A program made the position numbers and the translations under genes. Under the pieces are notes generated by a model. It was not told the DNA's origin, searched no databases, and was given only the letters and a program-made list of their open reading frames with translations. DNA of 64,000 nt from an uncultured Gammaproteobacteria bacterium (lineage in GTDB: Bacteria; Patescibacteriota; Patescibacteriia; Magasanikbacterales; UBA922), in the NCBI GenBank assembly GCA_964612105.1, contig CAZTEU010000001.1, forward strand, positions 79,115 through 143,114, given 5' to 3'. Below are positions 4,241 through 64,000 of the stretch, piece after piece. Positions within the stretch are counted from its first letter, which is position 1. Each line of letters opens with the position of its first letter.

Positions 4241-5281
4241 ATGAAATTACTCATAGGAAGTACAAATAGCGGAAAAGTAGAGGAATATATTGATGCACTA
4301 AAATCATTACCCTTTGAAATAATTGGGCTTAGTGATTTAGATAGTAATATTCCAGAGCCAGAGGAACCTTTTGATGATTTAGTTTCAAATGCCATACATA
4401 AAGCCAAGTACTATGGGGATAAAACAAACCTGCTGACTTTGGCTGACGATACTGGACTATTTGTAAACTCTCTAGATGGCTGGCCTGGGACACACTCTTC
4501 TAGAATTGCAAATACCGATGATGAGAGATGTGACTTACTCCTCGAGAAGATGAAAGGTGTCCCAAAATCCAAAAGAGAAGCAAAGTTCATGGGCGCACTT
4601 GCGCTCCATGATCCAAACTCAAATGATACTTTTATAGCTCAGGCAGAACATGCTGGTGAGATATTATTAGAAAAAGCGAGTAATGGAAAAAATGGATTCG
4701 GATATGACCCATTATTCTACATCAAAGAAGAGGATAGAACTTATTCTGAAATGACAAAGCCCGAAAAATCCAGTATTAGCTGGCGTGGAAAAGCAATTAA
4801 GAGGGTGGAGTACTTTTTAAACAAGCAGTACGGTGTCAAGCAGATTGTTGTACCTATGGGTATCATAGTGAATGATGAAGGTAAGATACTAATGTCACTT
4901 AGAAATGATCCGCATAATCTAGAGTTCCACAAAAAGTGGGAATTTCCAGGTGGAACTTTGGAGCAGGATGAAAGTATAGAGGATAATCTACTTAGAGAAG
5001 TCAAAGAAGAGGTTGGATATGACATAAAAATAGAGAAATTATTACAAAGAGTAATAACAAAATCAGTATCACCAACAGAAGGTTACACCTATCAGGTATG
5101 CTTACTTCCAGTAATTTGTACAATATTAGAGGGTAATGGAGAATCGGACGATCAAGAAATACTAGAAACCAGATGGATTGTGCCTGACGAAATGAAAGAA
5201 TTGGATCTACTAGGATCCATAGATATCGAGTTACTGTCCGAAATAAAAGAATCAATTAAAGAATTGAGACTAATAAAATAG
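4241..5281 (+). CDS. Fusion protein: Ham1/RdgB-family non-canonical NTP pyrophosphatase (N-terminal) + NUDIX hydrolase (C-terminal)
   Basis: The N-terminal ~190 aa have an ITPase-like pattern (GSTNSGK, ..DTGL...PG..S.R, FGYDP.F). The C-terminal ~140 aa carry a Nudix box GGTLEQDESIEDNLLREVKEEVGY. Confidence 0.7.
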   Translation: MKLLIGSTNSGKVEEYIDALKSLPFEIIGLSDLDSNIPEPEEPFDDLVSNAIHKAKYYGDKTNLLTLADDTGLFVNSLDGWPGTHSSRIANTDDERCDLLLEKMKGVPKSKREAKFMGALALHDPNSNDTFIAQAEHAGEILLEKASNGKNGFGYDPLFYIKEEDRTYSEMTKPEKSSISWRGKAIKRVEYFLNKQYGVKQIVVPMGIIVNDEGKILMSLRNDPHNLEFHKKWEFPGGTLEQDESIEDNLLREVKEEVGYDIKIEKLLQRVITKSVSPTEGYTYQVCLLPVICTILEGNGESDDQEILETRWIVPDEMKELDLLGSIDIELLSEIKESIKELRLIK

Positions 5282-5282
5282 T

Positions 5283-6542
5283 ATGTTAGATATAAATTTC
5301 ATTAGAGAAAACTTAGATTCTATTAAAAAGAATATTTCAAATCGTAGAATGAATGTTGATTTGACAAGACTAATAGAACTAGATGATTTTCGACGAGAAT
5401 CAATAATTCAGATTGAAAAATTGAGAAACGTTCGTAATTCTGGATCCAAAACTAAACCAAGTGAAGATGAAATTTCAAAAATGAGAGAAATTGGTGGGCA
5501 GATTAAAGCTCTTGAACTAAAACTAGATGAAATCTACCCAGAATACATAGAAATCTTAACAAGTGTTCCAAATATTACACACCCAGATGCTCCGGTCGGA
5601 GAAGAGAAGGATTTTGCTGTGCTTGAAAAGAAAGGTAATATCCCTACGTTTGTGTTTGATGCAAAGACACACGATGTTCTTATGCAGGATTTGGACTTAA
5701 TTGACTTTGAAAGAGGTGCAAAGGTGGCAGGATCTAAATACTACTACTCAAAAGGGGATTTAGTGAGATTGAATCAAGCATTGCTAAATTATGCTATTGA
5801 TATAACAACAAAACATGGTTATCTCCTAATTGAAACCCCTGATGTTGCAAAGCATGATATTCTTGCCGGTGTTGGATTTAATCCAAGAGGAAAAGAGACA
5901 CAGATATACTCTATAGAGAACACAGATCTTGGCCTAATAGGAACTGCTGAAATTACTGTGGGAGGTTATCATAAAGATGAAATACTAGACCTTGGAGATG
6001 GTCCAAAAAAATATGTTGCTCTCTCACACTGCTTTAGAACTGAGGCAGGCGCATATGGTTCTGCAAACAAAGGTTTATATAGAGTACATCAATTCACAAA
6101 ACTAGAGATGTTCGTTTATTGTAAACCAAATGATAGCGAAGAGCTACACAACGAGATTTTAGAGATTGAGAAAGAGATTTGTGATGGTCTTGAGCTTGCA
6201 TATAGAGTAATAGATACCCCAACAGCAGACTTAGGGGCTCCAGCATATAGAAAGTACGATATAGAGGCATTTATGGTTATGAAAAATGAGGATGGGGATG
6301 GTTATGGAGAGATAACAAGTACAAGCAACTGTACGGATTATCAAGCCAGAAGTTTAAACATCAAATATAAGGATGAGAATGGGAATAAATCCTATGTGCA
6401 TACTTTAAATGGCACTGCTGTCGTAATGAGTAGATTCCCACTGGCTATTTTTGAACAAAAACAACTGGATGATGGAAGTATTGAAATTCCAAAAGCGCTA
6501 GTTCCATATTTTGGAAAGGATAAGATAGTTAAAAATGGATAA
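5283..6542 (+). CDS. serS: Seryl-tRNA synthetase
   Basis: N-terminal coiled-coil arm, class II core and a typical SerRS C-terminus. Confidence 0.9.
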   Translation: MLDINFIRENLDSIKKNISNRRMNVDLTRLIELDDFRRESIIQIEKLRNVRNSGSKTKPSEDEISKMREIGGQIKALELKLDEIYPEYIEILTSVPNITHPDAPVGEEKDFAVLEKKGNIPTFVFDAKTHDVLMQDLDLIDFERGAKVAGSKYYYSKGDLVRLNQALLNYAIDITTKHGYLLIETPDVAKHDILAGVGFNPRGKETQIYSIENTDLGLIGTAEITVGGYHKDEILDLGDGPKKYVALSHCFRTEAGAYGSANKGLYRVHQFTKLEMFVYCKPNDSEELHNEILEIEKEICDGLELAYRVIDTPTADLGAPAYRKYDIEAFMVMKNEDGDGYGEITSTSNCTDYQARSLNIKYKDENGNKSYVHTLNGTAVVMSRFPLAIFEQKQLDDGSIEIPKALVPYFGKDKIVKNG

Positions 6543-7269
6543 GAAAAATACCACACTTTTTATACTCCCTGGGTGGGGTGGTAGTGAAACAACCTGGAAA
6601 CCCTTTATTAAGGTAGCTAAAAAAGATTTTGATGATGTTGTATGCATTAATCTACCTTGTTTTGGAGATGAGCCTTGCCCAAAGAACCCGTATGGTGTGA
6701 AAGGGTATTCGAAATTTGTTGAAAAGAATATAAAAGAATATAAATCTAATAACAAAAACAATAAGATTTTTTTACTGGGACACTCTTTCGGAGGGCAGGT
6801 TGCAACACAATTACTTTCTACAAATCAGGATATTGTAGATCACCTAATTCTTGTTGGCGCTGCAGTTATTAGGCCCAAAAAATACCTTAGACGAGGTATT
6901 TTATTGGTTATTTCGAAGCTGGGTTTTATAATATTTCAAATACCCTTTTTATCAAGGTTTTTTAGCATAGCCAGGGGTCTGCTGTACAGAATCATAGGTT
7001 CTCCTGACTATGCAAAGACATCTGGAGTTCAAAAAGAGGTATTTAAGATAGTTACAAGAGAGGATTTAACAAGTAAGCTTATAAAAATAAAGGTCCCCAC
7101 TACAGTTATATGGGGGGATAAAGACACTTATACAAGGTTGACATATGGTAAGATTATTGCCAAACTAATACCTAGATCAACATTAGTAGTTATAAAGGGG
7201 GGAAAACACGGTCTACATATTGACAAGACTAACGAGCTTATCAAACACATCAGGAAATTATGCTATTAG
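6535..7269 (+). CDS. Alpha/beta-hydrolase fold protein
   Basis: GHSFGG nucleophile-elbow motif in a ~240-aa protein; substrate unknown. Confidence 0.55.
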   Translation: MDKKNTTLFILPGWGGSETTWKPFIKVAKKDFDDVVCINLPCFGDEPCPKNPYGVKGYSKFVEKNIKEYKSNNKNNKIFLLGHSFGGQVATQLLSTNQDIVDHLILVGAAVIRPKKYLRRGILLVISKLGFIIFQIPFLSRFFSIARGLLYRIIGSPDYAKTSGVQKEVFKIVTREDLTSKLIKIKVPTTVIWGDKDTYTRLTYGKIIAKLIPRSTLVVIKGGKHGLHIDKTNELIKHIRKLCY

Positions 7270-11160: not shown

Positions 11161-12186
11161 ATGCGCAGGAGGAAGATACTAAATTTATATGCTCTAAGAC
11201 GTAAAATGACTCGTCGGATTTCTCGTGCAAAGAACCAGCTTTTCATGCCTGTGGTAGCAAGTAAGAGGCATAAAGATTATTCCTGGCACAGGTCAAAGAG
11301 TAATCCATATGTAAGAAAGGATTATAAATACATAAATAAAAAGAAGATTGAAATTGTGATTACTGCTATATGTATACTTACAACACTTTCTCTGCTTCTA
11401 TATCACAAAGCATTTCGTATAGATACAATAAATGTAGAAGGGCTTCGTAGACTTACACAACACGAGATTACAGAATCTGTGTATGCTTCACTCGCGTATA
11501 ATAAATTATACTTATTTCCAGCTAATAGTTATATTATGACTGATACCGCAAGTGTGATGGAAGTAATACAGCAAAAATTTCCAATTGAAAAAATTGAAGT
11601 AAAAAAATCATTTCCAAATACTCTTTCAATAGTCCTAGAGGAAAAGATATCAACTATTATATATGATAATGGAAAAGAGTATTCATACATTGGGCTGGAT
11701 GGTCGGGTTGTCGAAACACTACGAATGGTGGGGGAGGACGAATGGAAGATCACAAAAGAAATGGTAACATCCACAAAAGAAAATGGAGATTTATTTATGG
11801 AGGAAGTTGTTGTAGAAGAAAAACACACTCCACCAATAACACAGATTAAGACTGAGATGGGGGACTACCCCATAATATACAAGGACATGAAAAAGGAATT
11901 AGAAACAAACGATATTGTTATCAGTGACAATATTGCAAGTAGTATAATTGAATGGTTTAATTACTTCGAAAAGAAGACAGAAATTCCTTTTGGATATGCT
12001 GAGGTTACCAACGAAGTAGGGGACACAACACTTCACACGAGGGAGGGTTGGGATATTATAGTTAGGGCGGATAGTACTACAAAAGATCAGATTGAGCGTC
12101 TTGAGTCTGTCTTAAGAGAAAAGGTAGACAGAAGTAAAATTAATTATATAGATGTTAGATTCAAGGGTAGGGTATACTGGCAGTAA
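11161..12186 (+). CDS. ftsQ: Cell division protein FtsQ/DivIB (POTRA domain)
   Basis: Basic N-terminus, a single TM helix and a POTRA-like region (IDTINVEGL..LTQHEITESV). Position within the dcw-like cluster supports the call. Confidence 0.55.
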   Translation: MRRRKILNLYALRRKMTRRISRAKNQLFMPVVASKRHKDYSWHRSKSNPYVRKDYKYINKKKIEIVITAICILTTLSLLLYHKAFRIDTINVEGLRRLTQHEITESVYASLAYNKLYLFPANSYIMTDTASVMEVIQQKFPIEKIEVKKSFPNTLSIVLEEKISTIIYDNGKEYSYIGLDGRVVETLRMVGEDEWKITKEMVTSTKENGDLFMEEVVVEEKHTPPITQIKTEMGDYPIIYKDMKKELETNDIVISDNIASSIIEWFNYFEKKTEIPFGYAEVTNEVGDTTLHTREGWDIIVRADSTTKDQIERLESVLREKVDRSKINYIDVRFKGRVYWQ

Positions 12187-12542
12187 TATGTGTAGAAGGG
12201 AGTAGTGTTTTACAGGATAGAGGAGTGTCGCACAATGTACCTTATGCGACATCTATACTGTAGCTTTTGGTGTATTTAGTGTAAATTAGTATGTATTTAA
12301 CTATAGAAAATATATAATTAATTAATTTTCCTGCTGTATTATATATAATTATATTGATCATATCATGTCACAATATTTGGCTAACTTTAGCCCAAAAAAC
12401 GTCATTTTGCGACACTACAAAATGGCTGTTTAAAACACAGAGGTAGTACGTATCATCTTTTTATAATAAAAAAACACACGAGTATCTCATGTGCCCAGCG
12501 CGGGCTTAAAATATTAGAAAGATTGGTGAATATCTATCCAAA

Positions 12543-13793
12543 TTATAGATAATTAACAGGGTTTACTGGAATCCCATTTTTCCGAACCTCAAAATGCAGA
12601 TGTGGACCAGTAACAAATGGACCAGCACCAACAGTGTAAGGTGAGCCGCCAGAATATCCTATTGTGTCCCCTCTTGTTACAAATTGGCCTTCTGATACAG
12701 ATACTTTACTCAAATGCCCATATACAGTTGATAGTCCCCCAGAGTGTATTATCATAACGTAGCTATAACACCTCCATGATGAACAAACACGGGCTCTACC
12801 AATATACCCACTTGATGCAGCTCTTATTGGAGTCCCCTGCCCCGCTCGTATGTCTATAGCATTATGTTCAAAAATATGCCTGTATGGGTATTCCGGGTCG
12901 TGAAAATCTGCAGTTATATATTTACTTTGTGTTGGCCACGACAATACCGTTGAGTCATCATCAATATTATTAAACTTATCCTGATTTTTAAGTTTTTCTC
13001 TTACTTTCTTTTCAATTGATGATATTTCATACTCTATCGATTGATATTGGTTTTTTAAACTTTTTACTAGCGTCTGAAACTTTAGTTCGGAAGATTGAGC
13101 AGAAATTAGAAGATCTTGTTTTGCAAAAGTTTGTTCGTCTAGATCTTTAATTCTCTCTTCAAGTCTATCCTTCATATCTTTATATGAATCCTTCCTATCA
13201 TTTTTAGAGTCCCTTTTTTCCTCTAATTCTCCCTTGGATACTTTTAAGGCTTTTGCGCTCTTCCCCAAATCTCTTTCCATCATCTCAAGATGTTGTAATT
13301 GATTGTAAAATGAAGAAAAATTATCATATGCAGCCAGGACATATAACATATTCTTATTACCGTGTGTATATATGTTACGTATAAGTTCTGATAATATTTT
13401 CTGCTGTCTATCAATAGACTCAGCCTTGTCTTTAATTCCAATCTCTAAGGCTTCAATCTCCAGACTAAGGGTCTCTAATTTCTCGTTTGTGGCTTCAATA
13501 TCCAACTTTACTTCTGCAAGATGGTTATCAATTATTGCTATTTGATTTGTAAGAGAAACCGACTCTTTTCTTTTCTGCTGAATCTTATCTTTATACTCCT
13601 GTATTGATTTTTCTATTTTTTTAATCTTCTCCTTCCTTGCGGCAATTTCTTTGTTTAGCTCACTCACCTCTTCTGTGTTTCCACCTTGATTTTCCACACC
13701 AAAAACAACTGGAGATGGTCCAATTAGGAGTATAGCAATCATTAAAACACAAAATAAACTAAACCTTGTCCGCATATATCTACATTGTATCAT
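12543..13793 (-). CDS. M23-family peptidase with N-terminal coiled-coil (EnvC-like murein hydrolase/activator)
   Basis: Signal/TM at the N-terminus, a long coiled-coil, and a C-terminal M23 LytM domain (HxxxD...GPHLHFE). Confidence 0.75.
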   Translation of the reverse strand: MIQCRYMRTRFSLFCVLMIAILLIGPSPVVFGVENQGGNTEEVSELNKEIAARKEKIKKIEKSIQEYKDKIQQKRKESVSLTNQIAIIDNHLAEVKLDIEATNEKLETLSLEIEALEIGIKDKAESIDRQQKILSELIRNIYTHGNKNMLYVLAAYDNFSSFYNQLQHLEMMERDLGKSAKALKVSKGELEEKRDSKNDRKDSYKDMKDRLEERIKDLDEQTFAKQDLLISAQSSELKFQTLVKSLKNQYQSIEYEISSIEKKVREKLKNQDKFNNIDDDSTVLSWPTQSKYITADFHDPEYPYRHIFEHNAIDIRAGQGTPIRAASSGYIGRARVCSSWRCYSYVMIIHSGGLSTVYGHLSKVSVSEGQFVTRGDTIGYSGGSPYTVGAGPFVTGPHLHFEVRKNGIPVNPVNYL

Positions 13794-56892: not shown

Positions 56893-57189
56893 CTAATCAG
56901 TAAATACACCTTTTACTTTGAGTAAGTCACCCATCCTGTCTGGAAATTGAGAGATAATTTTTTTTCTTGTTTCTTCTGTGCATGCAACCACCTCATCCTC
57001 TCTTGTAACATCTTCCAAACCTGTTACCTGATTTGTCTCCTCTACAGAACTTGTATCTACTTCATTTAGTTGAGATATATATGCAAAAACAGCAGAAAGT
57101 TGTTCTGCATACATTTCTTTTTCTTGTTCTGTTAATTCTAAGCGCGCAAGAAGCGCAATGTCTTCAATTTCTTTTCTTGTTAGTGCCAT
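56893..57189 (-). CDS. gatC: Glutamyl-tRNA(Gln) amidotransferase subunit C
   Basis: ~98 aa with a GatC pattern. Start at MALTRKEI (ATG 57189), immediately upstream of gatA. Confidence 0.75.
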   Translation of the reverse strand: MALTRKEIEDIALLARLELTEQEKEMYAEQLSAVFAYISQLNEVDTSSVEETNQVTGLEDVTREDEVVACTEETRKKIISQFPDRMGDLLKVKGVFTD

Positions 57190-57198
57190 ATTAAGCCA

Positions 57199-57227
57199 AT
57201 TATATATCAATTACTTGCTCCAAGCAA
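57199..57227 (-). promoter_or_regulatory. Putative sigma70-like promoter for gatCA (-35 TTGCTT, 17-nt spacer, -10 TATAAT)
   Basis: Read on the minus strand: ttgctt-ggagcaagtaattgata-tataat, 9 nt before the gatC ATG. Confidence 0.3.
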
Positions 57228-57261
57228 GGTTAATATTGACAAGTACTCACATTGCTAATAT

Positions 57262-57750
57262 TATATATCCATGTATGCGTTCAGCCTGGGGCAACCACCC
57301 ATCGGCGAGATCAAGAGCAAAGAACGCGTCTACACGCTGGTTGGCCTAACTTCGCTACCGCGTGGGTATGGTCTGATGAGGCAGAGAGTCGAAAGAAGGA
57401 GAGATTTATCGACTCACCCCGGCCTGTGCTGGAATCTACTGTTGTCAGATAGCCATGCTTCTGGCTTACCAAGAGGTCGATTCGAACGTTGCTACCACTT
57501 GAGGAGCCTCTGTGTCAGAGTAGTAGTTACCGGATCAGTTTCCTGCTGTTCTGACACACGAACGAGAGCTAACTGCTCATAACGTGACCAGCTCCCTTGG
57601 TCACTAGTCTTCAGCAACTGCGCGTTGCTGGATTGCTCTTTCAGGGGTATCCTCCCTGTGGTCACAAACCAAAAAAGGAAGGCGTCCAACTTGGTGGCGG
57701 AAACTGGGTTTCGCTCTGTTGGGTTCAACCACACCAGGTTGGGCGCCGCT
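57262..57750. ncRNA. GC-rich, hairpin-dense non-coding island: probable structured RNA gene, class and strand unresolved
   Basis: ~490 nt of markedly higher GC than the flanking DNA. It has no ORF longer than 103 aa and no protein-like periodicity. Perfect 7-8 bp stems occur at 57510-57560, 57584-57605 and 57614-57632. Confidence 0.45.
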
Positions 57751-59771
57751 CAACTTACTAATAACTTAAACTGGGATTCTGTGATAATGTTTACACCCAG
57801 TTTTTTTGATTTTTCATATTTACTTCCTGGTTTCTCTCCCGCAACAAGATAGTCTGTATTTTTGCTCACAGAACCAGAAACACTTCCTCCATTACTTCTT
57901 ACTATTTCTTTTGCTTCATCTCTTGAGAGGGTTTGTAGTGTTCCAGTAAAGACAAAACTTTTTTCTTTAAGTTTACTATTAATTTTCTTTTTCTTTGTCG
58001 ATTTAATAGTAACGCCATTCTCTAATAATTTTTCTACAAGTTTTTTGTTTTTATCATCTTTGAAAAACTCAACAATGGATTCTGCAACACGAGGACCAAC
58101 ATCTGGAACATTTTCTAGTTCTTTCTGCTCTGCTGATATTAATTTTTTAAGAGAAATAAAATGATTTGCAAGTGCAATTGCACTCTCTTCCCCAACGTGC
58201 CTTATACCTAGTGAAAAAATCAAACGCGGTAGTGTAATTTCTTTTGCGTTGTTAACTGATTCCACTAAATTTTCTGCAGATTTTTCAGCAAAACGCTCCA
58301 GTGGTTCCAGATCATCAACTCTTAATGTAAATATATCCGAAACGTCTTTTATTAGACCTTCGTTCATTAATTGCTCCACAATCTTTTTACCAAGTCCATC
58401 TATGTTAAAAGCCTTTTTAGAAACAAAATGAATTATGTTTTTTAACTCTTGAGCAAAACAGTTCCTATTTGTACAAAACAATGCTGTAGAACTCTCTTTT
58501 TTCTTATCCATTATTTCTTTTCTTTCTACTTTCGAGTTACATATTGGACACTCTTTTACTTCTTTTACTTTCTTTTCTTTACCTGTTCTCATTTTCGTAA
58601 GCACACGAACAACTTTTGGAATAATATCCCCCGCTTTCTCCACAATAACTGTATCTCCTACACGAACATCTAGTCGTTTAATTTCATCAAAATTATGTAG
58701 TGTTGCGTGTGTTACGGTTGTTCCAGCTAATTGTACGGGTTCCATTAGCGCAACCGGAGTCAACGCACCTGTTCTACCAACTTGTACATATATATCTTTT
58801 ATTTTTGTACTCCCCTGCTCTGCTGGAAATTTTAATGCTATTGCCCAGCGAGGAGCTTTTCCTGTGTAGCCAAGTATATCCTGATACTCCTTCTGATTTA
58901 CTTTTACAACAACTCCATCTACCCAAAACTCTTTGCTGTGCTTTTCCTTCTGCCACTTATCATGAAAATCCATTATTTCTTTTAGTGTTTTGCACACTTT
59001 CCAATTGTTGTCTGTCAAAAAACCTAGTTCTTTTAGTTCTCTTAGCTCACCTTCCTGCGAAAGCGTGTGTTCATTGGAAATATCATAAGCTGTTACACTT
59101 AACTTTCTTTTTTCCACTATTCTAGGGTCTAATTGGCGAATAGTACCCGCTGCAATATTTCTTGGATTTGCGTAAAGCGGTTCATTATTTTTTTCCCTTT
59201 CTTTATTTATTTTATTAAATATTTTTTGTCCCATCCAAACCTCTCCTTCTGCAATTAAATCTACTTCTTTATTTAGTTTTAGTGGTACGCTGTGAATTGT
59301 TTTAATATTCTGAGTTACATCTTCCCCAACTTTTCCATCACCACGAGTGGCGGCTGTTTCTAACACTCCTTTTTTATAATTTAATACAATGTGCAATCCG
59401 TCTATTTTTAGTTCACAAATATATGTTACATCTTTTGGACGATTTCCTAATTTCTTTTCTAATATTTTTAATATCCTCTCCTGCCAATTTTCCATGTCTT
59501 CTTCTGTAAACGCATCGTTAAATGACCACTGGGGAACAGTGTGTGTAATTTTACTAAACTTTTCCAGGGGGGTACCTGCAATTCTTTGTGTAGGCGAATC
59601 TTTTGTAATTAGTTCTGGGTTTTTCTCTTCTATTACACTAAGCTCATCCATTAACCCCTCGTACATTTTGTCTGTAACTTCTGGATCATTAAGAACATGG
59701 TAACGATATCTAAGATCATTTATTTGTTTGTGCAACTTTTCTACATGCTTCTTTATGTCTTTTTTTGTCAT
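57750..59771 (-). CDS. ligA: NAD-dependent DNA ligase LigA
   Basis: KxDG adenylation motif (ELKIDGLHIV), an OB fold, a Zn finger (CPICNS...C), HhH repeats and a C-terminal BRCT domain. Confidence 0.9.
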   Translation of the reverse strand: MTKKDIKKHVEKLHKQINDLRYRYHVLNDPEVTDKMYEGLMDELSVIEEKNPELITKDSPTQRIAGTPLEKFSKITHTVPQWSFNDAFTEEDMENWQERILKILEKKLGNRPKDVTYICELKIDGLHIVLNYKKGVLETAATRGDGKVGEDVTQNIKTIHSVPLKLNKEVDLIAEGEVWMGQKIFNKINKEREKNNEPLYANPRNIAAGTIRQLDPRIVEKRKLSVTAYDISNEHTLSQEGELRELKELGFLTDNNWKVCKTLKEIMDFHDKWQKEKHSKEFWVDGVVVKVNQKEYQDILGYTGKAPRWAIALKFPAEQGSTKIKDIYVQVGRTGALTPVALMEPVQLAGTTVTHATLHNFDEIKRLDVRVGDTVIVEKAGDIIPKVVRVLTKMRTGKEKKVKEVKECPICNSKVERKEIMDKKKESSTALFCTNRNCFAQELKNIIHFVSKKAFNIDGLGKKIVEQLMNEGLIKDVSDIFTLRVDDLEPLERFAEKSAENLVESVNNAKEITLPRLIFSLGIRHVGEESAIALANHFISLKKLISAEQKELENVPDVGPRVAESIVEFFKDDKNKKLVEKLLENGVTIKSTKKKKINSKLKEKSFVFTGTLQTLSRDEAKEIVRSNGGSVSGSVSKNTDYLVAGEKPGSKYEKSKKLGVNIITESQFKLLVS

Positions 59772-63713: not shown

Positions 63714-63773
63714 TTATTACAAATTGACAAAATCCTTTTTCTGTGGTCTAGTTAATGTAGAGGAGGTTCCCCC

Positions 63774-64000
63774 ATGACCACAAACACAATTCTCTGGATT
63801 GCCGGAATAGTAGCGGCATTGTTCGTCTGTTACTTCATCTATCTTCGCTACGGGGCAGCGCTAATTGAGCGCGTAGTCTCTGGCGATAACTACGGCAGAG
63901 GCGCAAGACTTGTAGAATCCGACGGCGTAATCAGCAACGTATACGGAGATGGTGGCGACATGGTCATCATGCTCAAGCTCGACAACACCACTTGCCCAAG
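63774..64000 (+). CDS. Hypothetical N-terminally membrane-anchored protein, 3' end beyond window (GC-rich ORF)
   Basis: Strong SD (agaggaggt) 7 nt upstream of ATG 63774, followed by a TM helix (ILWIAGIVAALFVCYFIYL). The open frame runs to the window edge. Codon composition is GC-richer than the neighbouring genes. Confidence 0.45.
   Translation, partial: MTTNTILWIAGIVAALFVCYFIYLRYGAALIERVVSGDNYGRGARLVESDGVISNVYGDGGDMVIMLKLDNTTCP

Follow-up and report, generated by a model that had tools for sequence, protein, structure and literature searches.

The question raised by the stretch of 64,000 nucleotides (nt) analysed here (contig CAZTEU010000001.1, positions 79,115 to 143,114; hereafter the window) is what fills the long, GC-rich spacer between its genes ligA and gatC. 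The original prediction, made from the sequence alone, placed an unclassified structured RNA at 57262-57750, and this was borne out: the block, designated here as the island, matches no family of Rfam 15, folds beyond its shuffled versions, is accompanied by promoter and terminator signals, and has a syntenic homologue with 12 compensatory changes. With moderate confidence, we read the island as a stand-alone gene of the + strand for a heavily base-paired non-coding RNA (ncRNA) of no described family, the predicted product of which would act in trans and bind protein. Our verdict is that the structured RNA gene appears to be real, new, and narrowly distributed, with a predicted RNA of ~370-535 nt, and that the evidence is thin, as it comes from two sequences. 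From the signals on the DNA, we infer that it is transcribed as an independent RNA.

The sole recognisably related spacer was found in L020, a locus of the complete 1.23-Mb genome OZ246405.1, the LigA of which is 71% identical. The spacer is 393 nt long, and its RNA lies on the strand opposite ligA and gatC, in the same place and orientation as in the window. It has a TTGACA-17-TATGAT promoter, a GC-rich body of ~300 nt, and a 16-bp hairpin with a U7 terminator, and its fold has a z of -3.77 on the RNA strand vs. -1.85 on the other. In local alignment, nt 101-322 of the window RNA were matched with nt 18-228 of L020, and the longest strings common to both are CACACGAACGAG and CCUCUGUG. To keep L020 out of the structure derivation, model R1 used only window sequence (57455-57612) and the minimum free energy (MFE) structure of that sequence; model R2 represents the core and model R3 the 3' extension. 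Over 206 kb of loci, R1 recognized L020 at 5074-5235, on the syntenic strand and over its full length, with 28.1 bits and E 1.2e-5, and nothing else significant besides the window itself. The original prediction had proposed BLASTN against related genomes; neither BLASTN nor nhmmer revealed any similarity between the island and 11 LigA-retrieved GTDB loci.

The MFE folds computed independently for the window and L020 have the same order of hairpins Pa and Pb, a short junction, and hairpins Pc and Pd. Among 38 comparable base pairs, 21 are identical and 3 are broken, and pairing persists in 2 that differ on one side and in 12 that differ on both, as counted from two sequences in an alignment fitted to the model structure. 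Paired cells amount to 94%, vs. 33-43% when the partners are slid by 1-3 columns, and double-changed pairs number 12 vs. 0-2 after the same sliding; these figures are encouraging, though short of statistical proof. Conservation falls on the bases of helices and on a single junction between them; loops and most of the stem sequence vary, and conserved unpaired sequence comes to ~4-5 nt.

All parts of the predicted RNA lie on the + strand. The core starts with hairpin Pa (57463-57508), predicted separately in the window and in L020 and carrying two compensatory changes. Hairpin Pb (57509-57561) is an inverted repeat of ~18 bp with three G.U pairs, a base of CCUCUGUG / CACACGA, and three compensatory changes. 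Its 3' base and the short unpaired junction to Pc, which runs to 57565, make up CACACGAACGAG (57555-57566), 12 nt identical in L020; according to shared k-mers this is the longest string that the window has in common with L020, and it is unique in the window. Hairpin Pc (57566-57578) is larger in L020 and has two compensatory changes, and in the 8-bp hairpin Pd (57584-57604) five of the eight pairs carry double changes that preserve pairing. At 57610-57641, hairpin Pe and the UUGCUCUUUC behind it form a weakly terminator-like site, which occupies the position of the L020 terminator. The stem-loops named in the original prediction are all there, with gtgtcaga at 57512-57519 facing tctgacac at 57550-57557, gtgacca...tggtcac at 57584-57604, and cagcaac...gttgctg at 57612-57630. 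Upstream of the core, a 5' domain of several hairpins (57271-57462) can be aligned to L020 only from ~57371, and local and MAFFT alignments present roughly 57330-57415 as an apparent insertion of ~85 nt relative to L020. At 57345-57370, in the 5' block that has no L020 counterpart, CCUAAC...UAUGG resembles the 11-nt GNRA-tetraloop receptor (CCUAAG/UAUGG). Downstream of the core, the window-specific 3' extension (57642-57747) begins with hairpin Pf (57642-57658) and closes with the long hairpin Pg (57681-57747); a small hairpin and an A-tract (57671-57676) lie between the two. R3 detected no counterpart of this extension in any syntenic spacer.

The RNA strand is best read as +, opposite to ligA and gatC, because of the promoter, the asymmetry of fold z, the G.U pairs of the core, the stability of Pg, and the + strand terminator, and all of this evidence agrees. 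A promoter scan identified a sigma-70-type promoter TTGACA-17-TATTAT at 57236-57264 (+), with 11 of 12 consensus matches and its L020 equivalent at the same place; the start is predicted near A57271, 7 nt past the promoter. The island folds at -198 kcal/mol on the + strand (z -4.55, 0/100 shuffles as good) and at -180 kcal/mol on the minus strand (z -2.19), and 57271-57810 (+) folds at -199.4 kcal/mol with z -4.10. Seven of the 48 core pairs are G.U, and the third R1 match shows how they turn into A.C mismatches when the minus strand is read. Pg reaches -41.9 kcal/mol (z -3.5) on the + strand and -31.8 kcal/mol (z -1.35) on the minus strand. The terminator suspected near 57770-57805 proved to be a hairpin with T7 (U7 in the RNA) at 57768-57808 (+), with -13.1 kcal/mol, z -3.1, and 0/200 shuffles as good; it sits within the last ~19 codons of ligA and is the probable terminator of the long form. 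A scan also flagged the Pe hairpin and U-rich site at 57610-57641 as a weak terminator (-15.7 kcal/mol, z -2.0). The predicted RNA would therefore end in either of two places, near 57641 (~370 nt) or at 57808 (~535 nt), and the full predicted transcript would occupy 57271-57808, with both ends taken from promoter and terminator signals.

Further signals surround the island. On the minus strand, Pg followed by UUCCUUUUUUGG resembles an intrinsic terminator of ligA (57667-57747); it was read directly from the sequence and was not called by a simple terminator scan, as its loop is too long. The predicted convergent transcripts of the RNA and of ligA overlap by ~55 nt in the window genome and do not in L020, where only the U-run is involved; antisense control of ligA is thus not a conserved feature. 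A probable gatC promoter, TTGCTT-17-TATAAT, was read from the sequence at ~57197-57225 (-), between the island and gatC, and was not called by the scan because its -35 box matches in only 3/6 positions. Between it and the ATG of gatC there is hardly any leader, and a Shine-Dalgarno sequence is missing. The promoters of the RNA (+) and probably of gatC (-) stand back to back within ~70 nt at 57197-57272, where a 12-nt direct repeat TTATATATC(A/C)AT occurs at 57200 and 57261.

The island differs from its surroundings in composition, as the original prediction had said: G+C content is 0.46-0.525 over 57200-57800 (200-nt windows) and 0.29-0.36 in either flank. The longest run of the whole window at GC >= 0.48 is 57226-57800, with 575 nt and mean GC of 0.50 vs. 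a window mean of 0.366, and the remaining runs of this kind are transfer RNA (tRNA) loci or short stretches. The ligA-gatC spacer (~540 nt) is also the widest gap in the window between plausible real open reading frames (ORFs) of at least 90 codons. Its place between the two genes, with the right edge exactly at the ligA stop codon, was confirmed from ORFs and Pfam. The NAD-dependent DNA ligase gene ligA (57750-59771, minus strand) codes for the complete LigA Pfam domain set, and gatC (56893-57189/57210, minus strand) is the first gene of gatCAB and is followed by the GatA amidase gene. The closest LigA and GatC relatives are annotated as Candidatus Magasanikbacteria, Parcubacteria, or Patescibacteria, with the nearest LigA 73% identical, and none nearer than ~73% was present in the protein collection; the organism therefore represents an isolated lineage within this group. 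Its genome was assembled from at least eight metagenome samples and occurs in JGI 3300007765, 3300007508, and 3300008954, SRR9166043/44, and SRR8062341/43. An identical LigA is coded on eight contigs, and the island is 100% identical in each, with no variation.

The claim that the island holds no plausible ORF was literally incorrect, as an ATG ORF of 103 codons (57271-57582, +) and a GTG ORF of 80 codons (-) exist, and it was right in substance, as they have no Pfam match, coding pattern, or conservation. The peptide of the 103-codon ORF contains 13.6% Arg and 5.8% Cys. Its GC by codon position is flat, 0.50/0.54/0.53, when native genes have about 0.5/0.3-0.4/0.2-0.27. No trace of it was found by tblastn in the homologous L020 locus, and the DNA alignment of the island with L020 is rich in indels that are not multiples of three and break the frame. 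Gene callers left this ORF out in 8/8 assemblies, and in 3/8 they called an unrelated 49-codon ORF on the ligA strand. The 103-codon ORF thus looks non-coding and unconserved.

No known RNA was recognized in the island. At gathering score, Rfam 15 identified five tRNAs in the 64-kb window and nothing else, and a permissive search (E <= 10) of 57100-57900 on both strands gave at best 12-21 bits with unrelated models of small RNA (sRNA) and snoRNA. The search of both strands against all Rfam models, which the original prediction had recommended, therefore yielded no housekeeping RNA. ARAGORN likewise found five tRNAs and no transfer-messenger RNA (tmRNA) in the window, with no tRNA or tmRNA in the island; distant-mode searches of phage and plasmid collections returned nothing similar to the island, and the L020 homologue gave no Rfam match either. 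For RNase P (RNaseP_bact_a/b), no covariance match was obtained up to E 10, and the conserved-region motifs GGAAAGUCC / ACAGAA are absent; together with the lack of any tmRNA match in Rfam or call in ARAGORN, this agrees with the original prediction that the hallmarks of both RNAs are missing. Neither the small nor the Bacillus-type RNA of the signal recognition particle (SRP) matched up to E 10. The SRP Alu-like string gagctaactgct noticed before is indeed present at 57565-57576, where it is hairpin Pc and has no covariance support as SRP. 6S RNA, a rod of ~180 nt with a closing stem, a large central bubble, and a terminal stem, gave no family match, and the island's MFE structure is multi-branched with serial hairpins, unlike that rod.

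Group I introns were also negative, with no Intron_gpI match up to E 10, intact ligA and gatC as flanks, and no adjacent tRNA. OLE, ROOL, GOLLD, HEARO, and raiA did not match at gathering score or up to E 10, nor in L020 up to E 1. The suggestion that the island might be a large RNA of the OLE/ROOL/GOLLD type or a degenerate intron was consequently not upheld, as no model matches and no exons are present. For 5S rRNA, no model matched on 57100-57900 up to E 10. The resemblances to group I, RNase P, and 5S sequences reported earlier for the minus strand found no support from covariance models, and the RNA strand is +. No T-box leader was recognized up to E 10; the fold speaks for the strand opposite to gatC, and the probable gatC promoter is situated between the island and gatC. 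A hammerhead-like pair, CTGATGAG (57373-57380) ... CGAAA (57390-57394), is present without a model match, in a block missing or changed in L020; read as CUGAUGAG ... CGAAA over 57373-57394, it has a possible 3-bp stem II and is probably due to chance. A CsrA sponge was rejected, as the GGA count is not enriched. What the island does have are the features of an independent structured ncRNA gene in general, with promoter and terminator signals, no conserved frame, and compensatory changes, in one homologue.

The same spacer was inspected in relatives. Loci retrieved by LigA share the gene order pilM - pilin - prepilin peptidase - ligA - [spacer] - gatC - gatA. The three closest LigA lineages have the longest spacers, with ~540 nt in the window, 630 nt in P0002, and 393 nt in L020, and those of more distant relatives have 53-350 nt, except for ~740 nt in L003. 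The P0002 contig (204,205 bp, JGI 3300072015, LigA 73%) represents the closest lineage, and what it offers is the length of its gene-free ligA-gatC spacer. L046, a Logan contig with a 70%-identical LigA, ends (3547) 22 nt past the ligA stop, so that its assembly breaks exactly at the spacer. A metagenome scan for CCTCTGTG-N25-55-CACACGAACGAG gave 20 matches, and inspection revealed no likeness to the RNA in any of them. Scored with R2, the best of the 20 reached 16.8 bits (E 0.05), over sequence that necessarily includes the pattern used for the scan. No viral contig contained this pattern. Other relatives by LigA and GatC have spacers that are short or different, those of L023 and L048 being only 53 and 129 nt.

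Other GC-rich (0.47-0.49), strongly folding units were found in L002 (4262-4590), L021 (5018-5146), L024 (3520-3672), and L025 (3526-3724), all on the minus strand. They are 130-320 nt long, lie on the strand opposite ligA and gatC, and come from lineages with LigA 69-71% identical; fold z is -4.6 to -8.0 in mononucleotide shuffles. A TTGAC(A/T)-17/18-TAnnnT promoter precedes each of them, and each ends in an intrinsic terminator, which in many cases looks bidirectional. None of the four matched Rfam, and they could not be convincingly aligned to the window or to one another. The proposal that they are diverged members of the same family was rejected, as R1, R2, and R3 give nothing significant there. 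The L003 spacer (6059-6860, -) contains an 80-nt tRNA-like gene, called tRNA-Ile with the unusual anticodon AAT by ARAGORN, and a GC-rich ORF of 105 codons, apparently for a small membrane protein; both have a promoter-like box and a terminator of their own. The TTGAC(A/T)-17/18-TAnnnT boxes were read directly in L002, L003, L021, L024, and L025. On the spacers of L001, L002, L003, L007, L020, L021, L024, L025, and L048, Rfam 15 detected only tRNAs and noise. Judged from these sequences, the ligA-gatC spacer behaves as a slot with a constant position of the outward promoter and a changeable content, usually of structured RNA.

These relatives give rise to the main rival to an RNA product. On this view, transcription itself or the signals in the DNA and terminators would matter: a strong outward promoter, together with structured sequence rich in terminators, would insulate the convergent ligA unit from gatCAB, and the RNA body would be a passenger that can drift or be exchanged. 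Seven relatives with the promoter TTGAC(A/T)-17/18-TAnnnT on the same strand and in the same place, followed by bodies mutually unrelated by sequence and by covariance model, fit such insulation, as do the bidirectional-looking terminators that several units share with ligA and the Pg + U6 sequence, which reads as a ligA terminator on the minus strand. A terminator alone would suffice for this purpose, however, and relatives with spacers of 53-129 nt manage without any RNA unit. Moreover, drift would not explain 12 compensatory changes and a 12-nt invariant junction at 71% LigA identity, and selection on the RNA is suggested by the high GC of all bodies and by folds well beyond those of shuffled sequence. 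We consider insulation unlikely, with a small chance left to it. Decaying foreign GC-rich DNA, or a small foreign protein gene in the form of the 103-codon ORF on a leaderless mRNA, is quite improbable. The start of this ORF at the predicted transcription start, at least one foreign-looking GC-rich gene in the same genome (63774-64000), the GC-rich 105-codon membrane ORF in the L003 spacer, and the lack of the element in most relatives would all suit a foreign origin. Against a gene speak the missing Pfam match, the flat codon-position GC and odd Arg/Cys content, and the omission of the ORF by gene callers in 8 assemblies, as well as the lack of a tblastn match in L020, where the RNA structure is nevertheless conserved along with frame-breaking indels; against neutral decay speak the compensatory changes.

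A cis element of the minus strand, i.e., a long 3' untranslated region or terminator of ligA and/or a leader of gatCAB, e.g., a T-box-like one, would be in keeping with the minus-strand position of both neighbour genes, with Pg + U6 as a ligA terminator, and with GGGUGGUUGCCCC, which loosely recalls a T-box sequence; gatCAB is under T-box control in some Firmicutes. This reading is very unlikely, as neither a T-box nor another cis-regulatory family appears even at E 10, the minus-strand fold barely beats shuffles (z -2.19; -1.85 in L020), and the G.U pairs of the core turn into A.C mismatches. Besides, a perfect TATAAT box for gatC is situated downstream of the island, and relatives with 53-129 nt spacers need no leader. 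Least probable of all, with scarcely any chance, is a very divergent housekeeping or known large RNA (RNase P, tmRNA, SRP, 6S, group I/II intron, OLE, ROOL, GOLLD, HEARO, or raiA). Patescibacteria are divergent and their known RNAs can score low, and the first reading had noticed short string resemblances. But Rfam 15 gave only the five tRNAs in 64 kb and no family above 21 bits on 57100-57900, ARAGORN gave no tmRNA, and the L020 homologue is equally silent in Rfam. A housekeeping RNA would also have to be present in sister lineages at the syntenic site, where it is missing, and a size of 300 to 535 nt with only 160 nt conserved is unlike one.

If the island is a gene for an RNA product, as we prefer, transcription would proceed from the 57236-57264 promoter with a start near 57271 and would be terminated at the weak 57610-57641 site (~370 nt) or at the hairpin with U7 within ligA (~535 nt). 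The conserved heart of the product would be the row of four hairpins at 57463-57604, with bases and junction CCUCUGUG ... CACACGAACGAG kept in sequence and stems co-varying. The RNA may then act in trans as a stable, shape-specific platform, most likely for a protein partner, with a decoy or scaffold role comparable to that of 6S, Ms1, or Y RNAs. With low confidence, recognition of shape by a protein is favoured over seed pairing with mRNAs, because helices and a junction are conserved and nearly no single-stranded stretch is; a cis-regulator of ligA/gatC or a classical seed-pairing sRNA is less likely.

Several points weigh against this reading. Among the features tested, none indicates a particular partner or target, and the pair counts do not allow a statistical covariation test. 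The 3' third and the ~85-nt 5' block are unconserved even in L020. The predicted transcription start coincides exactly with the first base of the 103-codon ATG ORF. On the minus strand, Pg + UUCCUUUUUUGG reads as a terminator, so that the last ~110 nt of the island may serve ligA alongside, or instead of, the predicted RNA. Relatives at a similar distance lack the RNA, some with spacers of just 53-129 nt, and it would therefore be dispensable and young. Its general importance may also be small, as the family has very few members, close relatives do without it, and nothing hints at a function.

Two other places of the window deserve mention. At 63725-64000, a TTGACA box and a GAGGAGG Shine-Dalgarno sequence precede an open, GC-rich ORF that starts with ATG at 63774 and runs off the window end. 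Its codon-position GC is 0.52/0.41/0.60 vs. about 0.5/0.3/0.24 in native genes, and its N-terminus is hydrophobic; it is probably a horizontally acquired gene for a small membrane protein. The second-largest gap without a long ORF (12186-12543, 357 nt) is very AT-rich and contains several short inverted repeats.

Patescibacteria have tiny genomes with very little intergenic DNA, and in so compact a genome 540 nt of non-coding DNA behind a promoter this close to consensus are unlikely to be without a role. Hardly any regulatory or orphan structured RNA is known from this group, and a full-text literature search found no paper on such RNAs in Patescibacteria, nor on a ligA-gatC RNA. If expressed, the RNA would be a concrete starting point for the study of RNA-based regulation or of a new ribonucleoprotein in uncultivated organisms. 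A bolder and rather doubtful view is that the window RNA and its OZ246405.1 homologue are the first of an undescribed class of medium-to-large structured RNAs in Patescibacteria, which would work as ribonucleoproteins or even as catalysts, and that the spacer is an 'RNA-gene slot' with repeated replacement. Different structured RNAs behind the same promoter position would, if true, be a useful case of rapid ncRNA turnover, a pattern not known from these organisms. The importance of the island would rise sharply if the RNA were abundant, if more members showed significant covariation, or if the slot pattern held across Magasanikbacteria.

Of the known systems, trans-acting base-pairing sRNAs resemble the island RNA in their intergenic place, own promoter and intrinsic terminator, fast evolution, and restriction to lineages. 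The island RNA differs from them in being several times longer and in having nearly all conserved positions paired, with a junction of ~4-5 nt. The likeness to a group I intron core is limited to a short string of the minus strand, which is the wrong strand for the structure and has no flanking exons; on the + strand, this stretch is hairpins Pd and Pe. With 6S and Ms1, the island shares a strong housekeeping promoter, a stand-alone gene, and a shape conserved over sequence, and a protein route is proposed for it as well. Its fold is, however, a row of hairpins and not a rod with a central bubble, it matches no 6S or Ms1 model, and the RNA is two to three times longer than 6S. Orphan structured ncRNAs in long GC-rich intergenic regions (GC-IGR) of AT-rich genomes are known from GC-IGR and DIMPL searches (PMC8723152, PMC8632094, PMC11109978). 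Like those orphan RNAs (raiA, ROOL, GOLLD, OLE), the island fills an intergenic region that exceeds all others of an AT-rich genome in length and GC content, is multi-hairpin, and has compensatory changes and its own predicted transcription signals. Unlike those classes, its RNA matches none of their covariance models, is shorter (370-535 nt) than ROOL, GOLLD, and OLE, is not associated with phages or partner genes, and has two readable members where they have hundreds. The RNA family is new, with no described family matching it, and its kind, an orphan lineage-restricted structured ncRNA in a GC-rich island, is already known.

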